From an uncultured Gammaproteobacteria bacterium (GTDB lineage: Bacteria > Patescibacteriota > Patescibacteriia > Patescibacteriales > UBA12465), in the NCBI GenBank assembly GCA_964408775.1, contig CAYPAP010000003.1:47615-106153 (forward strand): DNA of 58,539 bases. The letters are read 5' to 3'. Every line of letters begins with the position of its first letter. The stretch's first letter is position 1. A program made the position numbers and the translations under genes. This document shows positions 638 through 58,539 of this stretch, piece after piece. The notes beneath the pieces were generated by a model. That model was not told where the DNA came from. It saw only the letters and a program-made list of their open reading frames with translations, and ran no database searches.

Positions 638-2091
638 ATGTAATTCATATTGCCTCAGAGGTCTCCCCTTTTTCTAAGACGGGAGGGTTGGGCGACGTAT
701 CCAGGAGCTTGCCCAAAGCTTTGTTTCGCCTAGGACATAAAGTATCGATAATTACACCGCTCTATGGGAAAATTATTGATAAAAAAGCCTATAATCTAAA
801 ACTTATACATCAGGATATCAATGTCTTTGTCGATTCAAAAAACTCGGTTAAGGTTAATTTTTGGCAAGGTGAGCTGATTGATGGTTTGCCGGTTTATTTT
901 ATAGAAAGCAAGGAGTATTTTTCTAAATACAAAAAGATTTATGTTTCTCGCCAAGATAATATACGATTTTTAGTTTTTAATGTGGCTGCTCTTAGGCTAA
1001 TAAGTTTACTAGATGATGTCCCTGATATTATCCACTGTCATGACTGGCATTCAGGCTTGGTACCTTATTTAATTAAGAATAAATATCGGTACACTAAAGG
1101 ACTGGATAAGGTTAAAACAATTTTCACTATTCATAATTTAGCCTTTCAGATGAGCCAGCCTTGGCGTGGTATCCCTTTAAATAAAAAGGATTATGGCCGA
1201 AGAAAACTACCTTATTTAAATGATCCAGATCTATTGAATATTAACTTTGCCAAAAGAGCTATTTTATTTGCAGATATTATTAATACTGTCAGTGAGAAAT
1301 ATAGGGACGAAATTATGACCAAAAAATTTGGTCAAGATTTAAACCGAATTTTAAAAAACAGAGAGGATCGTTTGTTTGGTATTATCAACGGTATTGATTA
1401 TAATGCTTACAATCCGCAAAGAGACTCGGGTCTTTTTAAGGGCTATGGCTTTGATAATTGTCATCTTAAAAAGGATAATAAAAAGTATTTACAAAAAAAG
1501 CTGGGGCTTAATATCGATAAGGATGTTCCTATGTTTTGTTCCACTTCTAGAATCGCCCATCAAAAAGGGTTCGATATTATATTAAAGCTTTTACCTTATA
1601 TTTTACGTTTAGATATTCAGGTTATTTTTATGGGCGACGGAGATTCTGGATATATTAAAAAATTAAAAAGGATACAGAAAAAATATCCTAAAAAAATGAT
1701 TTGGATGCCATTTTTAGAAAACAAAGAAACAGAAACATTGCTTTATGCTGCTTCTGACTTTTTTATTCTGCCTTCGTATTTTGAGCCTTGTGGTATAAAT
1801 CAAATGATAGCTATGCGCTACGGGGCGATACCAATTGTGCGAGGAGTCGGGGGACTGCACGACACCGTAGAAAATTTTAATCCGGTTACTAATAAAGGGA
1901 TAGGATTTGTTTTTAAATTAGGAGATGAATTTTCCTTCTTTGGGGCGATAGCTAGAGCGCTAGAGAACTATAAGTATAAGAATGTTTGGCATGAATTAAT
2001 TGTTCGCGCTATGAAAAAATCTAGTAGCTGGGAAATTCCAGCTCGAAAATATGTAGAGTTATATAAAAAAGCTTTAAGAATTAAAAGTTAA
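622..2091 (+). CDS. glgA: Glycogen/starch synthase (GT5)
   Basis: 489 aa. N-terminal IASEVSPFSKTGGLGDV (KTGGL motif). GT-B C-terminal half with PSYFEPCGINQM. Overlaps ruvC by 16 nt. Confidence 0.9.
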   Translation: MPKKINVIHIASEVSPFSKTGGLGDVSRSLPKALFRLGHKVSIITPLYGKIIDKKAYNLKLIHQDINVFVDSKNSVKVNFWQGELIDGLPVYFIESKEYFSKYKKIYVSRQDNIRFLVFNVAALRLISLLDDVPDIIHCHDWHSGLVPYLIKNKYRYTKGLDKVKTIFTIHNLAFQMSQPWRGIPLNKKDYGRRKLPYLNDPDLLNINFAKRAILFADIINTVSEKYRDEIMTKKFGQDLNRILKNREDRLFGIINGIDYNAYNPQRDSGLFKGYGFDNCHLKKDNKKYLQKKLGLNIDKDVPMFCSTSRIAHQKGFDIILKLLPYILRLDIQVIFMGDGDSGYIKKLKRIQKKYPKKMIWMPFLENKETETLLYAASDFFILPSYFEPCGINQMIAMRYGAIPIVRGVGGLHDTVENFNPVTNKGIGFVFKLGDEFSFFGAIARALENYKYKNVWHELIVRAMKKSSSWEIPARKYVELYKKALRIKS

Positions 2092-2094
2092 AAT

Positions 2095-4320
2095 ATGTTG
2101 TGGATTAATTTTTTACACTGTTATCAACCAGCAAATTCTGATTATTATAAAGTAAAAGAGGCTGTTGAGTTGAGCTATAAGCGAGTTATTAAAATCTTGC
2201 AAGATCAGCCTAATATTAAGTTTACTTTTAACATTACTGGATGTTTGGTCTCTCGCCTAGCAGAGCTAAAGTATCTTGATTTAATTGAGGATATAAATCA
2301 ATTAATAGACAGGGGACAAATTGAATTAACCGGATCCGCATCTTATCACGCCCTTTTGCCCTTAGTTAGGAAGAAAGAAGTCTATCATCAAATAAAGGAA
2401 AACGAGGCTATTTTAAAAAAGTATTTTCCTAAAGCAAAAATTAGAGGCTTCTTTTTGCCGGAAATGTCTTATAGTCCCGATGTGGCTAAAATTGTCAAGA
2501 AGCTTGGATATAAGTGGTTGATATTAGATGAAATATCTTATCAGGGGAGAAAGAAGATAGACTTTAATTTACCCTATGTAGATAAAAATAGTGGACTAAA
2601 AATAATTTTTAGATCTAGAAAGTTTTCTAATTGCTATGTTCCTGATGAAATTAAGAAAATATTAATAAGCGAAAAAGATGAAAAAGGAAGTGGAGAAGAT
2701 GTCGTTATCAGCGCTACCGATGGCGAGCTTTATGGCCTAAGACACAATGATAATACCGGAAGGTTAGAGGAGGTTTTGTCTAACAAGGAAATAAAAACCG
2801 CTACCGTTTCTAACTATATCGCTAAATTTAAAAAATTAGATCTTATTTCTCTTAGAAAAAGTAATTGGGAGTCGACTGAAAAAGATTTGTTGAATAAAAA
2901 ACCTTTTCATTTATGGGATGATAAAAACAATGATATTCATGTTAGGTTGTGGAAGTTAGCTAATTTAGCTTTGGATATTAATGAAAAAAATAAGGACGAT
3001 ATTAATTATAGTTGGTCTCGCTGGCATTTATCCAGGGGTCTGGCTAGCTGTACCTTTTGGTGGGCTAGTGCTAGGGATTTTAAACATAATTTTGGTCCTC
3101 GTGCCTGGAATCCAGATGAAATAGAAAGAGGAGCCAACGAACTTATCAGAGCTATTCGTTCTCTGGAAAACTCAACCTCTTATGCTGAGAAGATGAAGTC
3201 AGAAAATATTTTTATGGCTATTAAAAAAGCCATTTGGAGCAAGCACTGGTCTTATCATTCTCGCAATAAACTGGAAAATAGTAATAAGATAAATCGTCTT
3301 TTAAGTGAGAATTATGTTAAGGGTTTTTTTACTAGAAAGATTTTACCTCTTTATCCTGATTTTAAAAAAATAGAAAAAATAAAATTAATTTATCATAAGG
3401 ACTATATTTGGAAAACAACCTACCATGTAGTTTTGGAATTTAAAACTTTCTTTGTTCCTAAAAATTCTTCTAATGCTAAAAAGAATCTTAAGACCCTTTC
3501 AATTTTTTGCACGGCTCACTCTGGCGAACCTCGAAAAAACGTTCACGATACTTTATCTTATTTATGGGACAAGGGTTTTTCTAGCGGTTTTTTAACTATA
3601 CCCAAGCCTTTGTTTTATTCCAAGCATTTTAATGCTTCTTTTTATCGTGGAGTAAAGGGAGACAGTCTATTGCATTATATTCAAAATGACGACAAAAAAG
3701 AGGTGGAGAGGGTGGTTAAGAAAACAGCAGAATGGCTTGCTAAATTGCATAAAACACCGATTTCCGATATAATTAAGTTTAATAAGAGTAATACTAGAAT
3801 AAAGACCGTTCTTCCTGGATATGGCCACGTTTTAAGAGACCTTAAGGAAAAATATGATGGAAAATATTACAAGGATTTGAAGCTAATCTATGATTATCTC
3901 ATTGAATTGGAGGACGATTTTTTTGAAATTAGCTCCAAGAGATGGCTTATTCATGGTGATGTTCATCCTGATAATATAATTAAGATTGGCTCTAAAAAAA
4001 TAGCAATGATTGATTTCACGGATATTTGTCCTTCTGACTTTGCCAGAGATTTAGGATCCTTTATCCAGCAATTGGAATACAAAATGATCCGCCATAAGTA
4101 TAATAAAGTTTTTATTAAAAAAATTGTAGACACATTTATTGAGAGCTATTGCCGTCATGCCAAAATTAAATACAATATTAGAATTAAAGAAAGAATAAAT
4201 TTGTATTATCATTGGACTGCTTTTAGGACTGCTATTTTTTGGATAACTCGTTATAATCCCAAGCCAGAAAGAGCTGAGCCTCTAATAGCTGAAATCAAGA
4301 AAAAACTTAAACTAAAATAA
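2095..4320 (+). CDS. Fusion protein: GH57-like glycoside hydrolase N-terminal half plus APH/maltokinase-type kinase C-terminal half
   Basis: 741 aa. The N-terminal half has GH57-like motifs (HCYQP, FFLPEMSYS, SATDGELYG). The C-terminal half has LIHGDVHPDNI and IDFTD kinase motifs. Starts 3 nt after the glgA stop. Confidence 0.7.
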   Translation: MLWINFLHCYQPANSDYYKVKEAVELSYKRVIKILQDQPNIKFTFNITGCLVSRLAELKYLDLIEDINQLIDRGQIELTGSASYHALLPLVRKKEVYHQIKENEAILKKYFPKAKIRGFFLPEMSYSPDVAKIVKKLGYKWLILDEISYQGRKKIDFNLPYVDKNSGLKIIFRSRKFSNCYVPDEIKKILISEKDEKGSGEDVVISATDGELYGLRHNDNTGRLEEVLSNKEIKTATVSNYIAKFKKLDLISLRKSNWESTEKDLLNKKPFHLWDDKNNDIHVRLWKLANLALDINEKNKDDINYSWSRWHLSRGLASCTFWWASARDFKHNFGPRAWNPDEIERGANELIRAIRSLENSTSYAEKMKSENIFMAIKKAIWSKHWSYHSRNKLENSNKINRLLSENYVKGFFTRKILPLYPDFKKIEKIKLIYHKDYIWKTTYHVVLEFKTFFVPKNSSNAKKNLKTLSIFCTAHSGEPRKNVHDTLSYLWDKGFSSGFLTIPKPLFYSKHFNASFYRGVKGDSLLHYIQNDDKKEVERVVKKTAEWLAKLHKTPISDIIKFNKSNTRIKTVLPGYGHVLRDLKEKYDGKYYKDLKLIYDYLIELEDDFFEISSKRWLIHGDVHPDNIIKIGSKKIAMIDFTDICPSDFARDLGSFIQQLEYKMIRHKYNKVFIKKIVDTFIESYCRHAKIKYNIRIKERINLYYHWTAFRTAIFWITRYNPKPERAEPLIAEIKKKLKLK

Positions 4321-4323
4321 TTT

Positions 4324-5226
4324 ATGCTAATTGATTTACAACTTCACTCTAATTATTCTGATGGATATTTAAGTCCTTCAGAGCTAGTTAAACTCATTAA
4401 ATCTAAGGGGATTAAGGTAGCAGCTTTAACTGATCATAATACCACCGAGGGGGTGGATGAGTTTATAAAAGAGTCCAAAAAACACGGAATCAAGCCAATT
4501 ATTGGAATGGAAATTTATGCCAAATACAAGACTAAAAAAATAAATATTCTTTGGTATAATTTTGATAGAAATAACATCGAGTTACAAAAAATAATAGAGT
4601 CTTCTCGTCGTCGTCGATCATTGCTAGTCAGAAATATTCTATTGAAATTAAAAAGACGTGGCTATAAAATAGAAGTAGATAAAATTTTATCAGAATTTAA
4701 ACACTACATACCCATCAATCGTTTAGCAGACAAGATAATGGAAAAAGAGTTTAATTATAATTTAGTCTTAAGGGGTATTAAGAAAAAAAGAAAGAATTCC
4801 CCTGGTTTTTCCGGAAAATTATTATTACCACTTCGCGAAGATGATATTTTAGGAGAATTGTTTTTTGATAAAAAAATAGGGCGCTTAAATGAGGCCTATA
4901 TTAATATAGAAAGACTATTTAAAATAAAAAAAGAGGTCGGTGGACAAATTGTTTTTTGTCATCCTGGAAAGCATAATAAGTTTGCTAATAATATGACGGA
5001 AAAACTGAAGGACATGGGTTTGGATGGAATAGAGGTTTTGTCTCCTCATCATACTATTGGGGCTGTTATGTATAGTCAGTTTTTGTCTGAAAAATTAGAC
5101 CTTATAGCTACTGGCGGTTCAGATTTTCATTTGTTTGAGGGTGACGGTTCCTTGCTCCAAGATTCTTGGGACTGGTTTATGGTCGACAGCAGACGTCTTA
5201 GGAGGATAAGAGAAATAATAGGATAA
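4324..5226 (+). CDS. PHP-domain metal-dependent phosphoesterase
   Basis: 300 aa. DLQLHSNYSDG and ALTDHNT are histidine motifs of the PHP family. A later CHPG and GGSDFH are also present. Confidence 0.75.
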   Translation: MLIDLQLHSNYSDGYLSPSELVKLIKSKGIKVAALTDHNTTEGVDEFIKESKKHGIKPIIGMEIYAKYKTKKINILWYNFDRNNIELQKIIESSRRRRSLLVRNILLKLKRRGYKIEVDKILSEFKHYIPINRLADKIMEKEFNYNLVLRGIKKKRKNSPGFSGKLLLPLREDDILGELFFDKKIGRLNEAYINIERLFKIKKEVGGQIVFCHPGKHNKFANNMTEKLKDMGLDGIEVLSPHHTIGAVMYSQFLSEKLDLIATGGSDFHLFEGDGSLLQDSWDWFMVDSRRLRRIREIIG

Positions 5227-5258
5227 TATAGTTTTATTAATTTTTTTGAAATAATTTT

Positions 5259-7895
5259 ATGGCAGCAAAAAGCAAAAACAAAACTAAAAAAGAAAAAATT
5301 GAATACGAAGAATTGGAGTACGAATATGACGAAGAGCGTTATGCTAAAATTAAGACTAGTATTATAGCAATAGTTATTTTTGTTTTAGGACTAATTAGCT
5401 TATTAGCCTTATTTTCTTTATCGGGAAGCTTTGGTGTTTTTTTGGATAAAACTCTATCCCTAGGATTCGGCTGGGCTAAGTGGATTTTACCTATCCTATT
5501 GATAGTTCTGAGCGTTGCTTTGTATAAACAAAAAAAATTCTTTTCTCAGTCATCAAACTATATCGGATTATTTTTATTTTTTGTGTTTATACCAGTTTTG
5601 CTTCATTTCTTTTTTAAAAATTCGATTGCCGAAATGAAAGCTCAGGCTGGATTGGGCGGAGGACTTTTGGGCTTTCATCTGTCTTTATTTTTTAAAAGTA
5701 TTTTGGGGTTCTGGGGTGGCTTGATTATTATTTTAGCAATTTTAGCGGTTGCTGCTATATTACTTTTCAATATTACCTTGTCTCATCTAATTGGCTCTAA
5801 GAGTTTTATTTATAAATTTTTTAGTTTCGCTAAAAACTCTTTTAAAGATGAAGAGGGGGATGGCTACGCTGACGAAGAGGAGGAAAGCGAAGTTAACGAG
5901 GTGGAAGAAGAGGAGGAAGTAGATATTACTGTTGAAGATGATGATGGCCAGGGTGTTTTATTTACAAAAAAAGAAATAGGCCCTCATTCAAATAAAACAA
6001 ATGTTGCCAGGGCTGATGTTAAAAAGGAAAAGGAAATTAATTGGAAGACAAAGAAGATTAAGATAGATTTACCTCTAGATCTTTTAAGTAGTAAAATTGG
6101 TAAGGCTACTAGTGGTGATATTGAGAATAATATTTTAATAATTCAAAGAACTTTAGAAAATTTTGGTATATCAGTCGAGATGGGACAGGTTAATGTTGGG
6201 CCGACTGTTACCCAATACACCTTTAAACCTTCCGAGGGGATTAAGGTTTCTCGCATTACAGCATTAAGCAATGATTTATCCCTAGCATTAGCAGCGCATC
6301 CTATTAGGATAGAAGCACCTATTCCCGGGAAATCACTTATTGGCATAGAGGTCCCTAATAAGACCAAGGCTATTGTTGGTTTAAGAGAGGTTTTAGAGGA
6401 TAAAGACTTTAAATTAAGGCAAAGTAATTTAACTGCCGCTTTGGGGAAGGACGTTTCTGGTAGAAATATTGTCTACGATATTGCTAAAATGCCTCACTTA
6501 TTAGTGGCAGGTGCTACTAATTCTGGTAAATCAGTTTGTTTAAATACTATTATTGTTAGCTTGCTATACCAGAACAATCCAGCCGATCTTCGTTTTATTA
6601 TGGTTGATCCTAAAAGAGTAGAACTCCCAACGTACAACGGAATTCCACATTTACTTACCCCAGTTATTACTGATGTTAGTAAAACCATTAATGCCCTAAG
6701 ATGGTGCTTGAACGAGATGGACAGACGTTATGAGGTTTTAAATCAAGCTGGTAAGAAAAATATTCAAGTTTACAATAAGGCTAGTAAGGAAAAAATGCCT
6801 TATATAATTTTTATCATTGATGAATTAGCCGATTTAATGGTGGCGGCTTCTAAGGATATAGAGGGAAGTGTTATCCGATTGACCCAAATGTCCAGGGCTG
6901 TTGGTATTCACTTAATATTAGCCACTCAGAGGCCTAGTGTTGATGTTATCACTGGTTTAATTAAAGCTAACACTCCTTCACGTATCGCTTTTTCAGTAGC
7001 CTCTGCAGTTGATTCTAAAACTATTCTAGATTCATCTGGGGCTGAAAAATTATTGGGTAGGGGAGATATGCTTTTTACTACAGCCGAGCTCTCAAAACCT
7101 CGCCGAATCCAGGGTGCCTATGTTGACGATAGCGAGATTTTAGCAATAGTTAATTTTATTAAAGAAAAATACGGATCAGCTGATTACCTGGATGGAATCG
7201 TGGAACGCCAAAAAGTTAGCGGTATTGGCGGTGTTGGATTAGATGGAGTTATGGGAGATGAGGATGATCTCTTAGAGGAGGCTAAGGAGGTGATTATTGC
7301 CGCTGGCAAGGCTTCTACTTCTTTCTTGCAAAGAAGATTGCGTATAGGTTATTCTAGGGCAGCTAGCATTTTAGATATGTTAGAGGAAAATGGCATGGTT
7401 GGTCCGTCCAATGGCTCTAAGCCTCGAGAAATACTAATATCTAAGGAGCAATATGAAAATAGTGTGGCCAGTCCTATGGCGTCGTCAAGCCTTCATAGTA
7501 GAAGTGAGAGCAAATCACCAGACCAATATCTTTATACCGAAGATGAGACTCCTTTAGTTTTTGAGGATAATGAGGAGGAAGAGGAGGCGGAGATTGAGGA
7601 TGTTGAGGATGTTGAGGATGTTGAGGATGTTGAGGAGATTGAAGAGATTGAGGATATTGAGGATGTTGAGGATGTTGAGGAGATTGATGAAGAAGAAGAA
7701 ATTGAGGAGGTTGAGAATGAGGAGGAGAATGAGAATGATATCGAAGAAGAAGAAGAAGAAGAAGAAGAAGAAGAAGAAGAAGAAGAAGAAGAAGAAGAAA
7801 TTGAGGAGGCCGACGAAGAAAAAAATCAAACAAAAAATAACAAAAAGGATACTAAAAATGATAATGATTTTTTCGGTAAATATTTTTCTCGTTAA
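5259..7895 (+). CDS. ftsK: DNA translocase FtsK/SpoIIIE with a long acidic C-terminal tail
   Basis: 878 aa. N-terminal TM segments, Walker A GATNSGKS, Walker B IFIIDELADL, and a winged-helix gamma-like FLQRRLRIGYSRAASILDMLE. These are followed by ~150 aa of D/E-rich repeats. Confidence 0.9.
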   Translation: MAAKSKNKTKKEKIEYEELEYEYDEERYAKIKTSIIAIVIFVLGLISLLALFSLSGSFGVFLDKTLSLGFGWAKWILPILLIVLSVALYKQKKFFSQSSNYIGLFLFFVFIPVLLHFFFKNSIAEMKAQAGLGGGLLGFHLSLFFKSILGFWGGLIIILAILAVAAILLFNITLSHLIGSKSFIYKFFSFAKNSFKDEEGDGYADEEEESEVNEVEEEEEVDITVEDDDGQGVLFTKKEIGPHSNKTNVARADVKKEKEINWKTKKIKIDLPLDLLSSKIGKATSGDIENNILIIQRTLENFGISVEMGQVNVGPTVTQYTFKPSEGIKVSRITALSNDLSLALAAHPIRIEAPIPGKSLIGIEVPNKTKAIVGLREVLEDKDFKLRQSNLTAALGKDVSGRNIVYDIAKMPHLLVAGATNSGKSVCLNTIIVSLLYQNNPADLRFIMVDPKRVELPTYNGIPHLLTPVITDVSKTINALRWCLNEMDRRYEVLNQAGKKNIQVYNKASKEKMPYIIFIIDELADLMVAASKDIEGSVIRLTQMSRAVGIHLILATQRPSVDVITGLIKANTPSRIAFSVASAVDSKTILDSSGAEKLLGRGDMLFTTAELSKPRRIQGAYVDDSEILAIVNFIKEKYGSADYLDGIVERQKVSGIGGVGLDGVMGDEDDLLEEAKEVIIAAGKASTSFLQRRLRIGYSRAASILDMLEENGMVGPSNGSKPREILISKEQYENSVASPMASSSLHSRSESKSPDQYLYTEDETPLVFEDNEEEEEAEIEDVEDVEDVEDVEEIEEIEDIEDVEDVEEIDEEEEIEEVENEEENENDIEEEEEEEEEEEEEEEEEEEIEEADEEKNQTKNNKKDTKNDNDFFGKYFSR
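7596..7799 (+). repeat. Coding simple-sequence repeats: GAGGATGTT/GAGGAGATT 9-mers, then an uninterrupted (GAA)n run
   Basis: The gaggatgtt unit is reiterated from 7596. A pure GAA tract runs 7743-7799 (about 19 codons, poly-Glu). It lies inside the ftsK 3' end. Confidence 0.9.
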
Positions 7896-50400: not shown

Positions 50401-51000
50401 GCTCTAGGCGCTGTTACTGCTAAAGGAAATCTTTCTGGGGAAACTATCAATGTTACAAATAGCGGAGGCGTTTCTAAGAAGGCTACTATTGTTGGCTCTA
50501 AATTAATATCTATTACCAATGCTATGTCAGATGGAACCTTAACTGGCGGCACAGGTAAAATATTAGGTAAGTACACTCTTGTCTTCGATAATGGTGTTAA
50601 CAGAGATAATGCTAATGAAGCTATGAAAGCTGCTTTATCAAGCATTAAGATAACTTTCTCTAACACTGCAACTGTAACTGCTCCTTACTTATACATCGAA
50701 GGTCATGCTTCAAATAAAGCAACCTCAACTGGTGTTGTGAGTGGAAGTGTTACGTTTACAGATAATCTAGCTAACTTAGTAGATAGCGGAGAAATTGACG
50801 GATCTGTTACTATAGTAGTTGCTGGTCAGGTTACTACATCTGGTGAAAACCAATATGTACAAACTTCATTAGCTTCTTTAGGAGGTGACGTTCAATATTA
50901 TGTTGACGTTGATAATAGCTCAGCATCAAATGGAAGTGAGTCTATTACTTCAATGTTGATTAATGTTAACGATGTTAATGGAGCTACTTTGAGTAACTAG
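47449..51000 (+). CDS. Giant secreted surface (S-layer-like) protein with an N-terminal triple repeat module and ~6-7 Ig-like beta modules
   Basis: Signal peptide MTKLRKFFVSSVMVMTVVVMSGLTAPMATNAAAS. T/S/A/G/V/N-rich. By my reading there is no Cys after the signal peptide. ATG 47449 is preferred over the TTG 47359 ORF-track start. Strong terminator downstream. Confidence 0.7.
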   Translation: MTKLRKFFVSSVMVMTVVVMSGLTAPMATNAAASAGDLIKKDGLSAVYYLGEDGKRYVFPNESTYKSWYSDFSGVVTVSADELASYPLGANVVVRPGTFLVKITTDPKVYAVESNGTLRHVQTEADAIALYGANWAQRVIDVADSFFTNYTIGTPLASNEVPEGTLVQKSGEGNIYYYDGTDYRLIEDEVAFLANRFQFGHVITYNNFTASGSTITGAEAGITKTSQSGATGPVVTGSGLVVSLSSNTPASQNIPSGSSVEFLKFNMTAANDGPVNVSSIKLTADGLSDAQNIDSVTFYDGNMKIGTSKNINSDREAIFNFANPIYVAAGTTKTLTVKATIAVNTGTYGLGIVSASDIISSGATVTGSFPINSNLMSAVSASLGTLQVTSATAITNTVSFGEDNVLLSEFALRAGSNEDALLQSITLYNSGTNSNDIVDNLKLIIDGEEVSTGVYADRYVTFTLNNYKIEKSDTISVEVRGDIGTTSNNDTIKMYIKESLDVVAVGATHGFGLTLTNTVLNSAISTVTIQTGDFSIDMDKAITPARDVKADTKDVVLATIKMTSNGENATLTGIANTGFYVTYGTGTTTQMLENVKLVDKSTGGIYDLTAATSSTSTQLTLDDEISLVKGVTKTFELKADILTAAPENQTFAVTLAGSAMTIEGDVSGANISNITPSSVTGSIITVKAASLTVTPTALVSTNVVGGANSVIVYQAKVKAGTADGVKIQSVKLTSATSSAATSAFTDNNITKLSLWLNGKLLKEVSNQIANDSTTTNGTITFSSLNTANYTIPAGMEYDLVVMADFASSLIAGDFKLKVDAPADWTVRSVDGNKVVTPNDGDATSRVVTAATKGTLTVSLVTTDSKASRDSYVLAGSESEAGRYLGELKFVTAKEAIKVETLTLTATSSSSAFNDDIESIKLVTADGVVIASANVTSAGHATFDPFNVVFDADKSTSLFIAVEAKGINVNEDPTSTADHGDHITYALGAVTAKGNLSGETINVTNSGGVSKKATIVGSKLISITNAMSDGTLTGGTGKILGKYTLVFDNGVNRDNANEAMKAALSSIKITFSNTATVTAPYLYIEGHASNKATSTGVVSGSVTFTDNLANLVDSGEIDGSVTIVVAGQVTTSGENQYVQTSLASLGGDVQYYVDVDNSSASNGSESITSMLINVNDVNGATLSN

Positions 51001-51055
51001 TTCTATGTGTAGATAAGTTTTTCTCAATTTTTCTTTAATATAAATTGTAAAAAAA

Positions 51056-51083
51056 GAAGGTCCCCTCGGGGGCCTTCTTTTTT
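51056..51083 (+). terminator. Intrinsic terminator of the surface protein gene
   Basis: gaaggtcccc-tcg-ggggccttc followed by tttttt. Confidence 0.85.
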
Positions 51084-51269
51084 ATTTCAGCCTCTTGCTT
51101 TTAAAAAATTTACCTAAAAATTATTATTTCTTTAAAAAGAATTTATCCCTTTTTTGCTAATATTTTTATTATCTAATAATTAATAAAAATATTAAAGATT
51201 GATTAGAAAAATTAATAAGATTTCTATTGATGATTTTGAGGTTATAAAGAATAAAATAAAAGAGTTTCT

Positions 51270-51337
51270 ATAAAAAAACGACTCCTGCTTCAAAAAAGCA
51301 AGAGTCTCGGAGTTGCATTAATATGCGAACCAATTAT
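51270..51337 (-). ncRNA. Candidate ~68-nt sRNA 'E'
   Basis: Downstream of the minus-strand promoter ttgtat-N17-tatagt (51344-51372). Contains a gcat-atta-atgc hairpin. Ends in a gactcttgctt/aagcaggagtc terminator plus T-run. Confidence 0.45.
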
Positions 51338-51372
51338 GTTTTTACTATAGCAAATTTTTCCAGAAAATACAA

Positions 51373-51565
51373 GGGCAAAAAATACTTAATTATATTAGTA
51401 ATATCTGGTTGTACGAAAAAATCGTACAACTGATTTAAATAAAAAAAAGAGAATGGCGCAACTATCCGGAATTTCCGGACAGTTGGACTTAAAGGTATAA
51501 ATATTTATAGAAAATAAAATAATCTTTCAGCATGCTGTAATTCCCAGCCTACTGAAAAATATTGA
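51373..51565 (+). repeat. Island repeat segment (copy 1) with strong hairpins
   Basis: ttaattatattagtaatatctggttgtacgaaaaaat and tcagcatgctgtaattcccagcctactg recur at 53350-53423. Hairpins gttgtacga/tcgtacaac (51408-51430) and caactatccgga/tccggacagttg (51459-51485). Confidence 0.8.
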
Positions 51566-51576
51566 AAAATAAGCGC

Positions 51577-51605
51577 TTGCTTTTTTATAAAAAATTTGCT
51601 ATAAT
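51577..51605 (+). promoter_or_regulatory. Reiterated island promoter P1 (TTGCTT-N17-TGCTATAAT)
   Basis: The 46-nt block aaaaataagcgcttgcttttttataaaaaatttgctataatattaa is identical at 52310-52355. Related copies lie at 54950-54978 and, degenerate, at 51092-51122 and 53039-53068. Confidence 0.75.
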
Positions 51606-51611
51606 ATTAAC

Positions 51612-51733
51612 AGTGATATTTGTGAGGACATTTGTTCTCTCGCGGTCAAGTTAAAACTGCAGACAAATATCATGACAAAAGAAGTTTTTAGTCGCATCTC
51701 AAGTCTCCCTCGTGGAAGACTTTTTTTGTTTTT
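51612..51733 (+). ncRNA. Candidate sRNA family 1, copy A (~120 nt), antisense to the 3' end of the 167-aa gene
   Basis: Closing stem gatatttgt/acaaatatc, inner stem gcggt/actgc, and the aagtctccc...ggaagactt terminator plus T-run. Homologous to 53075-53193. Overlaps CDS 51688-52191 by ~46 nt. Confidence 0.55.
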
Positions 51734-52191
51734 CTTGAGATTGAACAATTTTTCTTCTTCCAGAAAGGTATAATACTCCAAAAATAGGGGTTATTATTTT
51801 CTATTTTTTTAACTATTATTTTTAATCTTACCTTATCAATAATAGCTATAAAAGCAAAATAAGTAACCCTTTTTTCTTTTTCTTTCCATTCTCCTGATAT
51901 TTTTATTTTTTCTATATTTTCTGACTTCTGAATTTCTTGAAGGGTATGAGACATTTTTATTATTAATGGTGCTAGCTGAATAAATTTTAATCTTATATAT
52001 TGATCATTTTTTGGTCTAGATTTATTCCAAGACTTCATTTTTATATGAGATAATCCTTTGGCGTTAAAGCTCACCAAGGTTTTTAAATATGGGCAATAAA
52101 CTTTCTCTATATTCTTGTAAAACTCCTCAGCCTCTTCTTTAGTGTTTTTAAAAATATCTTCATTAGTATTTGTCTTATTCCTCATAATCAT
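51688..52191 (-). CDS. Hypothetical 167-aa protein (cassette effector 1; possible small nuclease/toxin-like, unassigned)
   Basis: ORF with a near-leaderless start behind shared upstream block U. K/I/E-rich. The C-terminal beta-rich segment YFAFIAIIDKVRLKIIVKKIENNNPYFWSIIPFW only vaguely recalls small RNase toxin folds (speculative). Confidence 0.55.
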   Translation of the reverse strand: MIMRNKTNTNEDIFKNTKEEAEEFYKNIEKVYCPYLKTLVSFNAKGLSHIKMKSWNKSRPKNDQYIRLKFIQLAPLIIKMSHTLQEIQKSENIEKIKISGEWKEKEKRVTYFAFIAIIDKVRLKIIVKKIENNNPYFWSIIPFWKKKNCSISRKTKKVFHEGDLRCD

Positions 52192-52290
52192 ATTTATTAT
52201 ATATAATTAATTTATTGTATCAGATATGTATTAAATATATTTTAAATTAAGTATAAAAATAATATAAATATTTCAATTATTTGGTAAATA
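52192..52290 (-). repeat. Shared upstream block U, copy 1 (promoter/5' region of cassette effector 1)
   Basis: ~95 bp (atataattaatttattgtatcagatatgtattaaat...aagtataaaaataatataaatattt) nearly identical to 52945-53040. On the minus strand a TATAAT lies ~10 nt before the ATG. Confidence 0.85.
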
Positions 52291-52322
52291 TTAAAAATAT
52301 TAAAAAAATAAAAAATAAGCGC

Positions 52323-52351
52323 TTGCTTTTTTATAAAAAATTTGCTATAAT
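52323..52351 (+). promoter_or_regulatory. Reiterated island promoter P2
   Basis: ttgctt-N17-tataat with TGC extension. Identical to P1. Confidence 0.75.
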
Positions 52352-52357
52352 ATTAAT

Positions 52358-52452
52358 ATACATACGAAGAGGGCCTCAAAACATTGGCTTTGCCTAAGTG
52401 GAGACTCCCTTTTTAACAAAAGCCACTAGTTTTCTAGTGGTTTTTGTTTTTT
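52358..52452 (+). ncRNA. Candidate sRNA family 2, copy B (~95 nt), antisense to the 3' end of the NYN gene
   Basis: 5' catacgaagaggg, stem aagaggg/ccctttt, and terminator gccactag-tttt-ctagtgg plus T-run. Overlaps CDS 52426-52944 by ~27 nt. Homologs on the minus strand at 53213-53303 and 55145-55231. Confidence 0.55.
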
Positions 52453-52944
52453 AATTAATTTTAATTTTATTTTATATAAATAATCAAAATATTTTCTACC
52501 TAATTTTTTATATAAAGAAGATGCATATTTTCTGTTTGGAAATAATATTTTTTCAAACTTATCCTTTTCTATTAAATAATTAACCAATTTAATATAATCA
52601 CCATCACCCGAGATCAAAACTATTTTATTAAATATTTCTTTTTCACAGATTTTTTTCATTGCATCAAATATAATATCACAATCAATATTTCCTTTCTTTT
52701 TGCTGGTCATGGATGACAAATGATTTTTAAATATTATTTTGTAATTGCAATTTTCTAATTTGTTATAGATATTTTGATTTAAAATATCCCTATAGCCTAC
52801 ATAATAATAAACATCTTTAATTTTATATTTTTTCTTTAAGTATTTTCTTAATTTTTTAAAATCAATAACCCAAGGTTCATCTTCTAATTTTGTGCCAATA
52901 TATAAGTTTTGACCATCAATAAAACATAGATTATTTTCTTCCAT
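52426..52944 (-). CDS. NYN-domain (LabA/DUF88-like, PIN-related) putative ribonuclease (cassette effector 2)
   Basis: 172 aa. CFIDGQNLY at the N-terminus, GNIDCDIIFDAM, and LISGDGDYIKLV, which are typical NYN acidic motifs. Confidence 0.75.
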   Translation of the reverse strand: MEENNLCFIDGQNLYIGTKLEDEPWVIDFKKLRKYLKKKYKIKDVYYYVGYRDILNQNIYNKLENCNYKIIFKNHLSSMTSKKKGNIDCDIIFDAMKKICEKEIFNKIVLISGDGDYIKLVNYLIEKDKFEKILFPNRKYASSLYKKLGRKYFDYLYKIKLKLIKKQKPLEN

Positions 52945-53040
52945 AATTATTTATTACATATAATTAATTTATTGTATCAGATATGTGTTAAATGAATTTT
53001 AAATTAAGTATAAAAATAACATAAATATTTTTATTTTCTT
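52945..53040 (-). repeat. Shared upstream block U, copy 2
   Basis: Near-identical to 52192-52290 up to the start codon of the NYN gene. Confidence 0.85.
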
Positions 53041-53074
53041 GTTTTTTTATCTAAAAGTGTATTATAATATTAAC

Positions 53075-53193
53075 AGTGATATTTGTAGGGTCTTGGCTCT
53101 CTCACGGTCTTCTAAAACCGTAGCAAATATCATAATAAAAGAAGTTTTCAGTCAGACTGCAAGTCTCCCTCGTGGAAGACTTTTTTTGTTTTT
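53075..53193 (+). ncRNA. Candidate sRNA family 1, copy C
   Basis: Same closing stem, terminator and 3' tail as copy A. The inner stem is acggt/accgt versus gcggt/actgc in copy A, so the first pair changes from G-C to A-U (compensatory). Driven by the degenerate promoter copy at 53039-53068. Confidence 0.5.
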
Positions 53194-53212
53194 CTTGAGA
53201 TTGAGCAATTTT

Positions 53213-53303
53213 AAAAAAATAAAAACCACTAGAAAAACTAGTGGCTTTTATTAAAGAGGATCCTTTGTATTAAAAAATACTTCGGTGCCTTCTTCGTATG
53301 GAT
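53213..53303 (-). ncRNA. Candidate sRNA family 2, copy C'
   Basis: Minus-strand promoter ttgaat-N17-tatagt (53310-53338). 5' ccatacgaagaagg, stem aagaagg/cctcttt, and terminator gccactag-ttttt-ctagtgg plus T-run. Confidence 0.5.
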
Positions 53304-53338
53304 GTTTTTACTATAGCAAATTTTTCCAGAAAATTCAA

Positions 53339-53480
53339 GAAAAAACTGTTTAATTATATTGGTAATATCTGGTGGTACGAAAAAATATTACAATCAGCAT
53401 GCTAGAATTTCCAGCCTACTGGATTAGGGTGTTTTCGTGGTCCAAGTGTACGAAAAAATCGTACGATTAAAATTTTAGCT
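53339..53480 (+). repeat. Island repeat segment (copy 2)
   Basis: Shares ttaattatattggtaatatctggtggtacgaaaaaat and tcagcatgctagaatttccagcctactg with 51373-51565. Has a second gtacga-aaaaa-tcgtac hairpin near 53448-53464. Confidence 0.8.
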
Positions 53481-53573
53481 TATATTTATCTTTGATTTAT
53501 AAAATATTCATCAAGCTTCTGTTACAATAAATCTAGTTTTGAGTAGTTATATATTTTTTTAAAATAATGAAAT

Positions 53574-53624
53574 AAAAAAACCCATCGGGTTCGCATGAGC
53601 TTTACGGCTTAGAGGCGCGATGGG
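53574..53624 (-). terminator. Terminator-like hairpin on the minus strand (possible end of a short divergent RNA)
   Basis: cccatcg/cgatggg 7-bp stem with a 30-nt loop, followed on the minus strand by ttttttt. Confidence 0.35.
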
Positions 53625-53666
53625 CAACGACTCTCATTGTAATCTATTCTTTCAAAAAACACTATA

Positions 53667-53695
53667 TTGACATATTTTATTTCATAAGCTATAAT
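53667..53695 (+). promoter_or_regulatory. Consensus sigma70 promoter of the toxin-antitoxin operon
   Basis: TTGACA-N17-TATAAT (ttgaca tattttatttcataagc tataat), 30 nt upstream of ATG 53725. Confidence 0.75.
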
Positions 53696-53724
53696 AATGA
53701 TAGCTATTATTTTAATATAATTAT

Positions 53725-54570
53725 ATGATTAATAAAAAATCTTTAGGTAACAAAATTAAGGCTTTAAGAGAGTTCGAAGGAATGAGCCAAGAAGATTTGG
53801 CCCAAAAAGTAGAATTATCCAGAGTGGCCATATCTCAAATTGAACAAGGCAATAGAAATGTTGATTTTTTAGAATTAGCCAAAATAGCCCAAGTTTTTAA
53901 ATTAAAAACCGATTATTTTTTAATAGAGGATGAATTGCCCAATATCAAACCAACAAAAGAACCGAATAAAGCTAATAAGTTTAATCCCAAAAAACTCAAA
54001 AATGTTATTTTGTATATTTTAGAAAAATGTGCGGGGAAGCCAAATGTTGGAGAAACGGTATTGTATAAATTATTGTATTTTATTGATTTTGATAATTTTG
54101 AAATTAATGGTCAATCAATTTCTGGGTTAAACTACATCCATTTGCAATACGGGCCAGTTCCAATGGCTTCTTTGTACTCGCCAGTAATAGAAGAGATGAA
54201 GCTTGGGCAAGAGCTAAAAATTATTATTTCTGATTATTTTGGTTTAAAGATAAAGCGGTATATTAATTTAGTTACTCATGATATTGATTCTTTGTCCCCT
54301 AAAGAAACCAAAGTTATTGATAATGTTATCGGGTCTCTTTCTAATATGTCCGCCTCGCAGATAGAAGAATATTCTCATGGTGATGCTCCTTGGCGGTTGA
54401 CCAGCGAAAAAGAGCTTATTCCATATAATCTTGTTTTTGAGCGTCAATCTCCATATGCCAAAAGAAGCGCTGACGATCTTAGATATTTTAAAATGACTGG
54501 AGCTAGGGATATTTTGAATCAATTAGGCCCTATTTCTAAGGCAGAGTATGATTATTACGAAAATCTATGA
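53725..54570 (+). CDS. XRE-family HTH fused to a DUF4065/Panacea (SocA-like) antitoxin domain
   Basis: 281 aa. HTH MSQEDLAQKVELSRVAISQIEQGNR. The C-terminal KLKNVILYILEK...VLYKLLYFIDFDNF...LQYGPVP is typical of DUF4065. Overlaps the toxin gene by 4 nt. Confidence 0.75.
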   Translation: MINKKSLGNKIKALREFEGMSQEDLAQKVELSRVAISQIEQGNRNVDFLELAKIAQVFKLKTDYFLIEDELPNIKPTKEPNKANKFNPKKLKNVILYILEKCAGKPNVGETVLYKLLYFIDFDNFEINGQSISGLNYIHLQYGPVPMASLYSPVIEEMKLGQELKIIISDYFGLKIKRYINLVTHDIDSLSPKETKVIDNVIGSLSNMSASQIEEYSHGDAPWRLTSEKELIPYNLVFERQSPYAKRSADDLRYFKMTGARDILNQLGPISKAEYDYYENL

Positions 54571-54920
54571 TAATAAAAGGTGAGATTAGTTTTGGCGATA
54601 TTGTTTGGGTTGAATTTGATCCTAGCGCTGGGCATGAATATCAAAGTAAAAGACCAGCGATTGTCGTAGAGTCCAATGAACAACTAAAAAAGAAAAATTT
54701 GGTTACCATAATTCCATTAACCTCACAAAGGGACAATCGTATGCCCGATGATATTTTGGTAGAAGCTAGCAGGGAAAATAATTTAATGTTTGATTCAATA
54801 GCAAAAGTATATTGTATAACATCGTTTGATTATGTGAGATTTGAAAAAGTAATAGGAAAAATTAATAAAGAAGTGGAAATAAAAATCAAAGATTATTTTA
54901 AAAAACATTTTGGTCTATAA
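54567..54920 (+). CDS. PemK/MazF-family endoribonuclease toxin
   Basis: 117 aa. GDIVWVEFDPSAGHEYQSKRPAIVV and IIPLTS are typical MazF/PemK SH3-like fold motifs. Confidence 0.8.
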   Translation: MIIKGEISFGDIVWVEFDPSAGHEYQSKRPAIVVESNEQLKKKNLVTIIPLTSQRDNRMPDDILVEASRENNLMFDSIAKVYCITSFDYVRFEKVIGKINKEVEIKIKDYFKKHFGL

Positions 54921-54949
54921 TAATTTTAATTTAGTGTAGAAATAATCCC

Positions 54950-54978
54950 TTGGTTTTTTATAAAAAATTTACTATAAT
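54950..54978 (+). promoter_or_regulatory. Reiterated island promoter P4 (TTGGTT-N17-TATAAT)
   Basis: ttggttttttataaaaaatttactataat matches P1/P2 apart from a few substitutions. Confidence 0.65.
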
Positions 54979-54984
54979 ATACTT

Positions 54985-55144
54985 GTGCTTGTGAGCGAAG
55001 GCTCCGTTCGGCTAAGCTCTTGTCTAAAGAGCTATAAGCCGAAAGCAAGCACAATATTTACTATCTAGCTTATACCTGTCCCTTCTGTCGCTTCGGCGTC
55101 AGAACGCGAGGTCATTCTTTTATAGGGTGGCCTCTGCTTTTTTT
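54985..55144 (+). ncRNA. Candidate ~160-nt sRNA 'D'
   Basis: 9-bp closing stem ttgtgcttg/caagcacaa, inner hairpin ggctaagctctt/aagagctataagcc, ctgtcgc-ttcg-gcgtcag (UUCG loop), and terminator gaggtca/tggcctc plus T-run. Confidence 0.5.
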
Positions 55145-55231
55145 AAAAAACAAAAACCACTAGAAAAACTAGTGGCCTTTATTAAAGGGTCTCCCTAGGT
55201 AGTTAGCCGTTCGGATATCCCTTCGTATTGC
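55145..55231 (-). ncRNA. Candidate sRNA family 2, copy D'
   Basis: The minus strand reads aatacgaaggga...gggagaccctttaataaaggccactag-ttttt-ctagtgg plus T-run. Stem gaaggg/cccttt. The promoter is less clear (taatat -10 only). Confidence 0.4.
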
Positions 55232-55456
55232 TTGGTTATATTAAATAAAAGAACAACCACGTATACCTTATGGCACGTGGTTGTTCTTTTTTGCTATTGT
55301 CTCGAGATTGATTTTATAAAAAATACTATTTTGAAGATGTCAATTTTTGTCAACTCCCTTTTTTATTATTTTTTATTTTTGAAAGAACGAATAGATAGTT
55401 ATTGTTAAAATCTTTGAGACCTATTGTTTTTAATCTAAGAGCTAAATAGCTATAAA

Positions 55457-55810
55457 TTAATCATCCTTATTATATATCTTCCTGAGCTTCGCCAGTCCTC
55501 GATGAATTTGCACTGAAATTGTTTTTTTGGAACTTCCAGTTATAGCCGAAATCTCTGCTAGAGAAAATTCCTGTAAGTAACGCATTTTGATTACTTTCTG
55601 ATATTTCATAGGAAGTTGAGCAACTAAAAAAATGGCCTGCTCGCCATCTAAAATATCAATCATTTTTTCTGAATTGTCTTCGCTCAGCTCAAACCCCTTC
55701 TTCGCCAGATCTTCTAATGAGATAGTTTTCTTTTTCCGGTACTCATCAATAATTAAGCCCCTCAGGACATGGTAAAGAAAGCTTTTCATGACGTTAACCT
55801 TATTTCCCAA
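55457..55810 (-). pseudogene. N-terminally truncated ECF sigma factor remnant (region 4 plus the tail of region 2)
   Basis: 117 aa. FLYHVLRGLIIDEYRKKK (end of region 2) and FSLAEISAITGSSKKTISVQIHRGLAKLRK (region 4). Regions 2.1-2.3 are missing compared with 45435-46007. Confidence 0.6.
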
Positions 55811-56828: not shown

Positions 56829-58539
56829 ATGAAAGAGGTATTGATACAGGAAAAAGGTATTGAAGGAAACAATAATTCTAAAGACTTAGCTACTCAGGAG
56901 AGAGAATTATTTTTTAATATAGAAAAAAGTAGAGGAGAGTTATCCGAAGAAGATTTTCAATTAATACTAAATAGATTATTTGAGCACTCTGTTGACGATG
57001 CACTCAAATTTTTGAATCAGTTAAATTTAAGCAGAGATCAGTTTGCGAAGGCCTTGGTTAAGCCTTTGTTTTTTATAAAACATCCGAAGATAGCTTCTTG
57101 TTTATTCTCAGAAATAAGTAGTAATGAAAAGTATATAGAAAGAGGAGAGTTATTGGATACAATGAAAGAGGGGGGTAATAATTTTAAAAAAATAGAAAAA
57201 AAAGGATCAGCAATCAGTGATGAATATTATCATCAACAAGATGAATATAAGCAGGCTAGCTACCAAGTTAAAAAATATATCGATAAGATAGATGATTATT
57301 ATTCTGTTTTCTTTGATGTTCAAAAAGATGTTAAATTAGAGGAATCTGGTGAAAAATTTAAAAATGATTTAGTTTTAGATCAAATTTTTTCGTCTAAATT
57401 GGCGCTAGAGAACCATTATTATAGTGGAGAGATATTAAAAATCTTATTTAAAAATTTGATTCATGAAGACTCAAAAAAAATTAGTAAAATAGCTGAAGAG
57501 CAATTTAAAAATAATAGTGATTTACAGGTTAAATACAATTCTGATTTTTCTCGATATTTTAGTGCTCTAGAAAGGGGGTCTGCTCCAAATAGAGATATAG
57601 TTTTAGAATATTTAAAACAAAATAAGGCCTTAGTCCGAGAGATTAAAAATAATAATTTATTGGACCAGGAAACAGTTAATAGTATAGTGGAGCAGTATGA
57701 TTTAGGCGATGTTATTAATAAAAATAGGGTGGACAGGGCTAAGTATAAACCCCTAGGATTGGTTTATAATTTTAGGAAGGAATTGATTGAGAAAAAAATA
57801 ATTAATAAAATTCAGGAATCCTTAAAAAGAAGATTCTCAGGAAGAGATTTGAAAATAATATTAGATCCGGAAAGCGGTTCGTATGTTGTGGATGGTCTAG
57901 ATGATAAAAATAATGAATCTTTAGATAAAAAAGAGTCCAACATTGAGACTGTTCTTTACACTTTCAGCAACAGAATTCGTTTTTCCTTAGAGGAGTTTAA
58001 TATTATTAACAATCAATTCTATTTTAAAGCTAAAGAAGCTGGAAGGCAATTTGTAATCGGACCAAATGGAGAAAAAATTGGTAGCGATTATGATTGGGTT
58101 TGCCCGCCTAAAGACATTAATAGTCAAGTCTATTTTACAGCTCAAGAAGCTGAAAAGCATTTTATAATCGGACCAAATGGAGAAAAAATTGGTGGCGACT
58201 ATGATTTTGTTGGCGAACCTAGAGAGATCAATAATCAAGTTTATTTTAGAGCCCAAGAAGCTGAAAAGCATTTTATAATCGGACCAAATGGAGAAAAAAT
58301 TGGTGGCGACTATGATTTGGTTTATGAGCCTAAAGACATTAATAATCAAGTTTATTTTAGAGCCCAAGAAGCTGAAAAGTGGTTTGTAATCGGACCAAAT
58401 GGAGAAAAAATTGGTGGCGGTTATGATTATGTCAGCGACCCTAAAGATATTAATAATCAAGTCTATTTTAAGGCTAAAGAAGCTGGAAGGCAATTTATAA
58501 TCGGACCAAATGGAGAAAAAATTGGTGGCGACTATGATT
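56829..58539 (+). CDS. Large protein (5' partial view, runs off the window) ending in tandem 37-aa repeats (WG/KWG-repeat-like)
   Basis: The frame is open from ATG 56829 to the window end by my own translation. It is absent from the ORF track because there is no in-window stop. Repeats read YF.AQEAEKHFIIGPNGEKIGGDYD.V.EPKDINNQV. Confidence 0.75.
   Translation, partial: MKEVLIQEKGIEGNNNSKDLATQERELFFNIEKSRGELSEEDFQLILNRLFEHSVDDALKFLNQLNLSRDQFAKALVKPLFFIKHPKIASCLFSEISSNEKYIERGELLDTMKEGGNNFKKIEKKGSAISDEYYHQQDEYKQASYQVKKYIDKIDDYYSVFFDVQKDVKLEESGEKFKNDLVLDQIFSSKLALENHYYSGEILKILFKNLIHEDSKKISKIAEEQFKNNSDLQVKYNSDFSRYFSALERGSAPNRDIVLEYLKQNKALVREIKNNNLLDQETVNSIVEQYDLGDVINKNRVDRAKYKPLGLVYNFRKELIEKKIINKIQESLKRRFSGRDLKIILDPESGSYVVDGLDDKNNESLDKKESNIETVLYTFSNRIRFSLEEFNIINNQFYFKAKEAGRQFVIGPNGEKIGSDYDWVCPPKDINSQVYFTAQEAEKHFIIGPNGEKIGGDYDFVGEPREINNQVYFRAQEAEKHFIIGPNGEKIGGDYDLVYEPKDINNQVYFRAQEAEKWFVIGPNGEKIGGGYDYVSDPKDINNQVYFKAKEAGRQFIIGPNGEKIGGDYD
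58020..58539 (+). repeat. 111-bp tandem coding repeats (at least 4.7 copies, continuing past the window)
   Basis: Units start at 58020, 58131, 58242, 58353 and 58464, with high nucleotide identity. Confidence 0.9.

Follow-up and report, generated by a model that had tools for sequence, protein, structure and literature searches.

Toxin-antitoxin systems of type III (ToxIN, CptIN and TenpIN) consist of a protein and a dedicated, structured non-coding RNA that is encoded alongside it, and the locus described here follows the same plan. It lies in a window of 58,539 nt, by which we mean the whole stretch of DNA that was analysed, and it combines a small RNA with a gene for a protein of about 160 aa. 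As in type III, the RNA is proposed to bind the protein and not to act by antisense, the surroundings are those of defence and mobile elements, and one of the loci, L161, even has the order RNA, terminator and gene. The differences are equally clear. Type III RNAs form a tandem-repeat array that is processed by the toxin, whereas there is a single junction per locus here, and a TRF search over 51000-55500 returned only AT-rich low-complexity repeats. The RNA has its own promoter and is convergent with the gene in all 78 genome loci and in 72 loci from metagenomes, with L161 as the only tandem case. The protein is unrelated to ToxN/AbiQ, CptN and TenpN (no such match in Pfam, PADLOC, NCBIfam, PHROGs or the PDB). 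The proposed partnership of RNA and protein is closest in logic to type III, yet every sequence-level test for type III membership came back negative.

Type I systems are similar in another respect. A shared bidirectional terminator between convergent genes is known from par of pAD1 and from the 3'-overlapping systems of Bacillus subtilis. Like txpA/RatA and bsrG/SR4 of B. subtilis and RNA I/RNA II of par, our module has a convergent small RNA gene with a bidirectional terminator that is shared or with 3' ends that overlap. However, its protein is basic, 157-170 aa long and globular according to the model, instead of being a hydrophobic peptide under about 60 aa, and the conserved part of the RNA is found outside the overlap, which is itself clade-specific and absent from L161.

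The protein bears a distant resemblance to LPD3 (PF18798), a domain of polyvalent proteins of phages and conjugative elements that has no known function; the LPD domains are thought to act in host-parasite conflicts (Iyer et al. 2017, PMC5512222). In a BFVD fold search the top three matches of the window protein were LPD3 proteins (probability 0.90-0.99, E 0.014-0.1, TM about 0.4), and PF18798 was weakly matched by 7 of 20 homologues, with a best E of 5e-7. In contrast to the LPD3 domains of polyvalent proteins, ours are stand-alone, chromosomal CPR proteins, and the window protein itself stays below the Pfam threshold. We know of no RNA partner described for LPD3. A further comparison is offered by the prr locus of E. 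coli, in which PrrC is nested in a type I restriction-modification (R-M) system and is restrained by the R-M proteins, not by RNA. In several of our genomes there is likewise a small accessory gene between hsdM and hsdS, but it has no sequence or fold relationship to PrrC-type effectors, and only about 14% of the loci are R-M linked.

Fold, promoter and terminator of the RNA

The window is AT-rich (33.7% GC), and the homologues of its genes carry Patescibacteria/CPR names. The earlier note had described two copies of a small RNA in it, copy A at 51612-51733 and copy C at 53075-53193, and we found them as described: the alignment of 51576-51752 with 53038-53212 has 83% identity across 178 nt. 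The closing stem GTGATATTTGT/ACAAATATCAT, the CTCTC.CGGTC core and the AAAAGAAGTTTT spacer are common to both. The compensatory change that had been reported for the inner stem P3 was also seen, this stem being GCGGT/ACTGC in copy A and ACGGT/ACCGT in copy C with a first pair that goes from G-C to A-U, and we add that the third pair goes from G.U to G-C. P2 is compensatory as well (A-U to G-C and C-G to U.G), which had been overlooked. The stems of the two copies differ by two double compensatory and two wobble-compatible changes, and no pair is broken. The family recurs in over 160 independent loci, and the similarity between copies A and C is therefore far beyond chance.

The 5' 60 nt of both copies fold into a three-way junction (P1-P3). 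In copy A this domain extends over 51612-51673 on the + strand, with P1 at 51613-51623/51663-51673, P2 at 51624-51629/51634-51639 and P3 at 51642-51646/51656-51660, and with UC and AG as the junction strands J2/3 and J3/1. The junction of copy C, at 53075-53134 (+), is composed of P1 at 53076-53085/53124-53133, P2 at 53087-53091/53096-53100 and P3 at 53104-53108/53117-53121. The fold energies of copies A and C are -34.8 and -35.4 kcal/mol, which correspond to z = -3.9 and -4.3 against shuffles. A covariance model made from relatives (R1) recognized the + strand with 61.5 bits in copy A (E 3e-16) and 56.4 bits in copy C (E 1e-14), compared to 13.5 and 12.6 bits for the - strand.

The covariation was measured in two samples. 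The protein-first sample was drawn from GTDB species representatives and comprised 80 loci with a gene of the protein family, and in 78 of them nhmmer and model R1 located the same 5' domain just past the stop codon on the opposite strand. RNAalifold, applied to a plain MAFFT alignment of the 80 sequences (A3), found compensatory changes in 11 of 14 pairs. When a junction model of 21 pairs was laid over this set, 92.9% of the cells were paired, compared to 33-48% with the partners slid, and double changes were present in 15 of the 21 pairs (211 cells, against 62 +/- 12.5 in shuffles). The closing pair of P3 was A-U in 58 and G-C in 20 of the 78 distinct sequences, with no mismatch at all. The independent RNA-first sample was obtained by scanning metagenomes with a degenerate core pattern (93 loci, 89 with the RNA), and here 90.4% of the cells were paired, compared to 28-52% in the controls. 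The earlier note had held that a lack of covariation in additional homologues would count against its reading; in the relatives covariation proved to be abundant. Since G.U wobbles outnumber A.C by 194 to 33 in the family, the folded strand is the one opposite the gene. No overlap with the mRNA reaches into the most conserved and covarying part of the RNA. The sequence of the junction nucleotides is conserved, and very few of the conserved ones are unpaired.

Two short segments that differ completely between the copies had been likened to specificity or variable loops, and the specificity idea was not supported. One of them is the P2 hairpin, of which the stem covaries and the loop varies freely across the family. 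The other (GCATCT vs AGACTG) represents two variable codons before the last Asp of the opposite gene (RC vs QS). In copy A, GCATCT is antisense to the Arg-Cys codons and lies in an A-rich linker (51674-51701, +), which also contains the complement of the stop codon at 51688-51690.

Copy A is preceded by a promoter at 51577-51605 (+), consisting of the -35 element TTGCTT (51577-51582), a 17-nt spacer and the extended -10 element TGcTATAAT (51597-51605), and its predicted start is near A51612. The promoter of copy C at 53039-53068 (+) has TTGTTT as the -35 and TATAAT (53063-53068) as the -10 element, with a predicted start near A53075. This layout recurs almost throughout the set of 80, with TTGACw as the -35 and TGnTAnnnT as the extended -10 element at constant spacing from P1. 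By these motifs the predicted promoter is of the sigma-70 type and, because it sits at a fixed distance from P1, the predicted RNA start is the base of P1.

The intrinsic terminator of copy A, at 51702-51733 (+), was recognized by a clade-wide terminator analysis and by the codon fixation described below. It has the stem AGTCTCC/GGAAGACT and the loop CTCGT, followed by T7-G-T5, and is located inside the coding sequence (CDS) of the 167-aa gene, antisense to the KKVFHEGD codons. As had been stated before (with 46 nt), copy A overlaps the 3' end of this opposite-strand ORF, of which it covers the last 43-46 nt. In copy C an identical terminator hairpin with its U-tract occupies 53162-53193 (+). 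The earlier description of an identical terminator plus tail was right in that a 44-nt block at the 3' end is identical, but this is not conservation of the RNA only: the block is the reverse complement of the conserved C-terminal codons of the 167-aa family (KKVFHEGDLxxD), so the conserved peptide on the opposite strand explains it.

Two terminator layouts are found in the family. In the window's clade the hairpin is within the CDS, 37-50 nt of which are overlapped, and the RNAs measure 111-139 nt. Most of the other clades have a bidirectional hairpin, flanked by A residues, in the spacer and a U-tract that runs up to the stop codon, and their RNAs measure 87-104 nt. The linker between P1 and the terminator is only 0-5 nt there, and such RNAs therefore have almost no single-stranded seed. 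With the terminator shifted into the last codons of the gene, RNA and protein of the window's clade constrain the same 40-50 nt. We examined the codons of 19 genes with a KK[VI][FL]H.G[DN]L tail. Val was encoded by GTC in 16 of 16 cases, a codon used for only 7% of Val elsewhere in these genes, and Phe by TTC in 16 of 16 (19% elsewhere). Gly was GGA in 18/19 (36%), Asp was GAC in 18/21 (22%) and Lys was AAA in 38/38 (76%). Val is replaced by Ile (ATC/ATT) in three genes, and in each of these Asp is encoded by GAT, a coupling that, read from the codons, is a compensatory change across the terminator hairpin. The synonymous sites of the tail are fixed so as to preserve the hairpin and the U-tract, and selection at the RNA level therefore acts on this terminator in the CDS.

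The independent marks of a bacterial small RNA gene, i.e. a promoter, a start, an intrinsic terminator and covariation on the predicted transcribed strand, are all present in the sequence. On this evidence the RNA of about 90-135 nt is a predicted small RNA gene, presumably transcribed on its own, and is widely conserved in Patescibacteria. The central proposal of the earlier note, a small RNA with a real compensatory change, has thus held up: the RNA is structured and carries a promoter and a terminator of its own. Rfam 15 gave no match at the gathering threshold over the window RNA or five typical loci, and in E-value mode only generic terminator or leader matches far below the threshold. 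Exact DNA patterns (the terminator; P1 plus the core) had no match in IMG/VR, and in the literature on CPR small RNAs, RNA antitoxins and LPD3 we found no description of this RNA. Going by these searches, the family matches no Rfam family or paper and is previously undescribed.

The convergent gene and its genomic contexts

The gene opposite copy A, at 51688-52191 (-), encodes a basic protein of 167 aa that we regard as the cognate partner of the RNA. Its likely start is the second ATG at 52185, which would give 165 aa, the length also reported by the JGI gene caller for an identical metagenome contig in sample 3300033177. No recorded protein was an exact match to the 167-aa ORF, and for the NYN protein encoded nearby only the same organism came up, at 100% identity. 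A word-seeded search, by comparison, collected 316 homologues and a profile search 1080 clusters at 50% identity. The members are 157-170 aa long and uniformly basic, with a pI of 9.3-10.1 and a net charge of about +12; basic charge is common in the AT-rich proteomes of CPR. The C-terminal tail is strongly conserved, as KKVFHEGDLxxD in this clade and R[IL]LHxGxPEED in others. The AlphaFold model of the 167-aa protein is alpha+beta (pLDDT 84, pTM 0.76), and in it the tail is disordered yet conserved. The window protein matched nothing in Pfam at E <= 0.01 and nothing in the PDB by fold or sequence, no function could be assigned with PADLOC, NCBIfam or PHROGs, and a protein-based search of IMG/VR found no relatives on viral contigs. 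Taking the model and the weak family matches together, the protein is best called distantly LPD3-like.

The gene is nearly always intact. Only one of the 80 loci, L075, has a clear frameshift, so gene decay is not frequent. The suspicion that the putative toxin is often pseudogenised was further weakened by the nature of the stops in L026, L051 and L073, which are all TGA at invariant Trp positions. They are found at L026:3286, 3394 and 3412, L051:3289 and L073:3391, corresponding to W102, W138 and W144, in members that are otherwise intact. Their sequence looks like recoding and not like decay. UGA may stand for Trp in the metagenome-assembled genomes in question, or these may have been given the wrong taxonomic label.

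The RNA was 5-60 nt from the stop codon, and always on the opposite strand, in the 78 species loci that have it. The normal arrangement is tail-to-tail, with convergence in at least 150 loci of the two samples. Among the 89 RNA-first loci, 72 had the convergent gene (70 HMM-positive and two cut by a contig end), one was tandem, two RNAs at contig ends were not judgeable, and about 14 were orphans. Thus, the gene is lost in about 16% of the RNA loci, and a promoter-bearing RNA is intact. A clear relic of the gene tail was recognized beside eight orphan RNAs (L089, L131, L132, L133, L139, L142, L145 and L159), and L172 is possibly the ninth. The tandem locus, L161:394-992, is the only one with the RNA 5' of the gene on the same strand; the order is promoter, junction, terminator and ATG (at 511), and RNA and gene do not overlap at all. 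We found no other conserved neighbours across the 80 loci. The gene and the RNA are therefore a self-contained module, and it turns up in varied genomic contexts in Patescibacteria.

Copy C is such an orphan. The earlier note had given it no protein-coding partner and there is indeed no gene, but the minus strand at 53148-53210 keeps a relic of a lost paralogue, namely the last 20 codons and the stop (NCSISRKTKKVFHEGDLQSD before the stop, as translated from the sequence), whose tail ...KKVFHEGDLQSD matches homologue P0007. As read from these codons, copy C is an orphan RNA left after gene loss, and its relic would have been retained because it carries the terminator of the RNA. A second orphan belongs to a paralogous subfamily. 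In L003, the closest relative of the window organism, a paralogous gene with 41% identity to the window protein is arranged tail-to-tail with a paralogous junction RNA. The window counterpart of this RNA is a third, divergent three-way-junction RNA at 54980-55056 (+), which has no adjacent gene. The covariance model matched it weakly (22.8 bits, E 2e-4), and its relatives take the same junction fold. The whole third RNA occupies 54980-55150 (+); the junction accounts for the first 77 nt, and about 90 nt follow with the hairpin CTGTCGC-TTCG-GCGTCAG and a terminator near 55130-55148.

Conflict systems are frequent neighbours of the module. An N6 DNA methylase gene was immediately 5' of the gene in 11 loci, HsdS was downstream in eight, and Fic/DOC genes were nearby in at least seven. 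At least six loci have the order lexA, hsdM, gene and convergent RNA, hsdS. They include L005, L007, L016, L018, L021 and L028 (about 350-6300), where the N6 methylase is hsdM-like with an HSDR_N_2 domain. In these loci, the bidirectional terminator of the RNA would split the R-M operon. In the window, the module adjoins an NYN nuclease gene and an HTH-Panacea/PemK pair. The latter, at 53725-54920 (+), is a Panacea-type toxin-antitoxin in which the gene for a 281-aa HTH_3 plus SocA/Panacea protein overlaps that for a 117-aa PemK/MazF toxin by 4 nt, and it has a perfect promoter, TTGACA-17-TATAAT, at 53667-53695.

Other elements of the island

The island contains a second family of small RNAs (family 2), at 52357-52452 (+), 53316-53214 (-) and 55243-55145 (-). 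Its copies share the motif AUACGAAG at the 5' end and a near-identical terminator (AAAAGCCACTAGTTTTTCTAGTGGTTTTT), and are variable in the middle. The copy listed first faces the NYN-domain gene (52426-52944, -) tail-to-tail and covers the final 27 nt of it. In L003, L008 and L055, too, a promoter-bearing RNA of like design (ACGAAG/ACGAAAAAGG ... CCUUUUU) converges on the NYN gene. This arrangement suggests that an NYN gene with a convergent RNA is a second type of protein-plus-RNA module.

Several blocks occur more than once. The promoter block 51556-51610 is duplicated at 52302-52356 (95%) and partly at 54940-54980, where it drives the third junction RNA. A minus-strand promoter cassette, TTGAAT-17-TATAGT, is present at 51336-51373 and again at 53302-53339 (97%); one copy drives an RNA of about 60 nt with a terminator at 51306-51280, and the other drives copy C of family 2. 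From such repeats, the island looks like the product of modular shuffling of promoter, RNA and gene blocks. The 95 nt directly 5' of the 167-aa gene (52191-52285) and of the unrelated NYN gene (52948-53042) are 89% identical, and the two genes thus share a promoter/leader cassette. A -10-like TATAAT a few nt from the ATG suggests that the mRNAs are leaderless or near-leaderless. The hairpin motif GTACGAAAAAATCGTAC is present three times in the island (51410-51429, 53375-53393 and 53448-53466) and once in the relative L003, between its two modules. At 58005-58539 there are tandem 111-nt repeats with 84-93% identity. They code for a repetitive ORF of 168 aa on the minus strand (57987-58493), and the array is cut off by the end of the window.

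A possible RNA antidote and its alternatives

We tentatively favour the view that the locus is a toxin/antitoxin-like RNA-protein module with a protein-binding RNA, to which we would give just under an even chance. The RNA is probably the protein's RNA partner or antidote. What the sequences show is the RNA gene, its strand, promoter, structure and terminator, its linkage to the protein gene, the doubly coding tail and the recurrence of orphans; the direct binding of RNA and protein, the toxicity of the protein and the antidote role are inferred. According to this scheme, transcription from the sigma-70 promoter would start at the base of the compact three-way junction, after which an A-rich linker and then the intrinsic terminator would be transcribed. 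The RNA would act via the folded junction, by which it would bind the cognate protein instead of pairing as an antisense RNA, and would be an antidote or regulator in the manner of type III RNA antitoxins; the protein would be a growth-inhibiting or defence effector. The two-gene module would move between genomic contexts and would often become wired into R-M operons and toxin-antitoxin islands, and in the window's clade the RNA terminator would have moved into the last codons of the gene. A toxin/antidote partnership is favoured because of the strict linkage, the co-diversification of the paralogues and the separate strong promoter of the RNA, and also because of the recurrent RNA-only orphans, the basic protein and the defence and toxin-antitoxin contexts. 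However, an independent task of the RNA would explain the orphans equally well. A more specific version, that this is a new, Patescibacteria-specific module in which a single non-repeated junction RNA with its own strong promoter holds an LPD3-fold effector in check, often within type I R-M operons, is plausible but a little more doubtful.

It is possible, but rather unlikely, that the RNA serves the LPD3-like protein as cofactor, scaffold, sensor or substrate and not as antidote, and that both form a working ribonucleoprotein, perhaps an R-M accessory, in which case the orphan RNAs would be remnants in decay or would work with a paralogous protein whose gene lies at another place. Linkage, co-diversification and the compact fold fit such a particle equally well. 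The gene abuts hsdM as if co-translated in at least six loci, and its almost invariable integrity is what one would expect of a useful protein more than of a dispensable toxin. The gene-less loci with an intact RNA nevertheless show an asymmetry that is typical of antidote/toxin pairs, and the separate, near-consensus promoter suggests that the RNA is made in excess over the protein, neither of which is in favour of a ribonucleoprotein. We consider it less likely still that the RNA acts like a type I cis-antisense RNA, base-pairing to the convergent mRNA at its 3' end, either across the shared terminator or across the final 40-50 nt of the CDS, so that the mRNA is degraded or its expression blocked, with the junction serving only to stabilise the RNA. 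The convergence in so many loci agrees with this, the type I systems with a shared bidirectional terminator provide a precedent, and the overlap of 37-50 nt in the window's clade would allow antisense effects in addition. However, many clades have only the terminator hairpin in the overlap, and L161 has no overlap. The junction nucleotides are conserved in sequence, which a mere stabiliser would not need, and the protein is a predicted soluble one of 160 aa and not a small membrane peptide. When the 5' domain was compared with the 5' region of the mRNA, no cognate-specific pairing over non-cognate pairing was found (p = 0.12). Because the CDS overlap is clade-specific and one locus is tandem, and because the covarying part of the RNA is outside the overlap and the RNA has almost no single-stranded seed, antisense is probably not the common mechanism, although pairing at the shared terminator may contribute, and in the window's clade the 167-aa mRNA may be under antisense control.

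Riboswitches that control antisense transcription are known, and a junction that senses a ligand or signal might regulate read-through of the terminator and thereby antisense transcription across the gene. The order of a structured 5' domain and a terminator facing a gene, together with the conserved junction core, is in line with this, but we think it very improbable: P1 and the terminator are adjacent without overlapping and can form together, the folds and the terminator survey revealed no conserved anti-terminator pairing, so few conserved junction nucleotides are unpaired that there is little to build a pocket, and the orphans and the tandem locus do not fit. It is hardly credible that there is no functional RNA and that the two copies merely reflect a recent segmental duplication plus coding constraint, either from the C-terminus on the opposite strand or from the 33-aa ORF that runs through copy A. 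It is true that the identical 3' block belongs to the coding sequence of the 167-aa family or to a relic of it, and that promoter and gene-upstream blocks are duplicated around the island. The 5' domain, however, is non-coding and covaries across more than 160 loci of different Patescibacteria lineages, and the promoter is conserved and the G.U bias is on the RNA strand. With covariation in both samples, we regard the absence of a functional RNA as refuted for the 5' domain. The 33-aa peptide, which the earlier note had named as another possible source of the similarity, was rejected: its ATG is ATA in copy C, and in the relatives, where the ORF is not conserved, the ATG is absent or early stops follow.

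To our knowledge, almost nothing is known about the non-coding RNAs of CPR/Patescibacteria. The present family, with over 160 examples that covary strongly and bear a promoter, has no entry in Rfam 15 and no description in the literature that could be searched. It provides a first functional handle on a widespread orphan protein family of about 1080 clusters and, via this family, on LPD3, a domain found in polyvalent proteins of phages. Dual coding is seen in clean form in the window's clade, where the KKVFHEGD tail and the terminator of the opposite strand are written on the same nucleotides. The module is small, about 650 bp, and directly testable in E. coli. On the more specific version of the antidote reading, the parallel module with an NYN nuclease in the same island would suggest that convergent RNA antidotes are a general theme in CPR genomes. 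If the RNA is truly an antidote, the biology of RNA antitoxins would extend beyond the repeat arrays of type III and the peptide toxins of type I, and would be linked to R-M operons.
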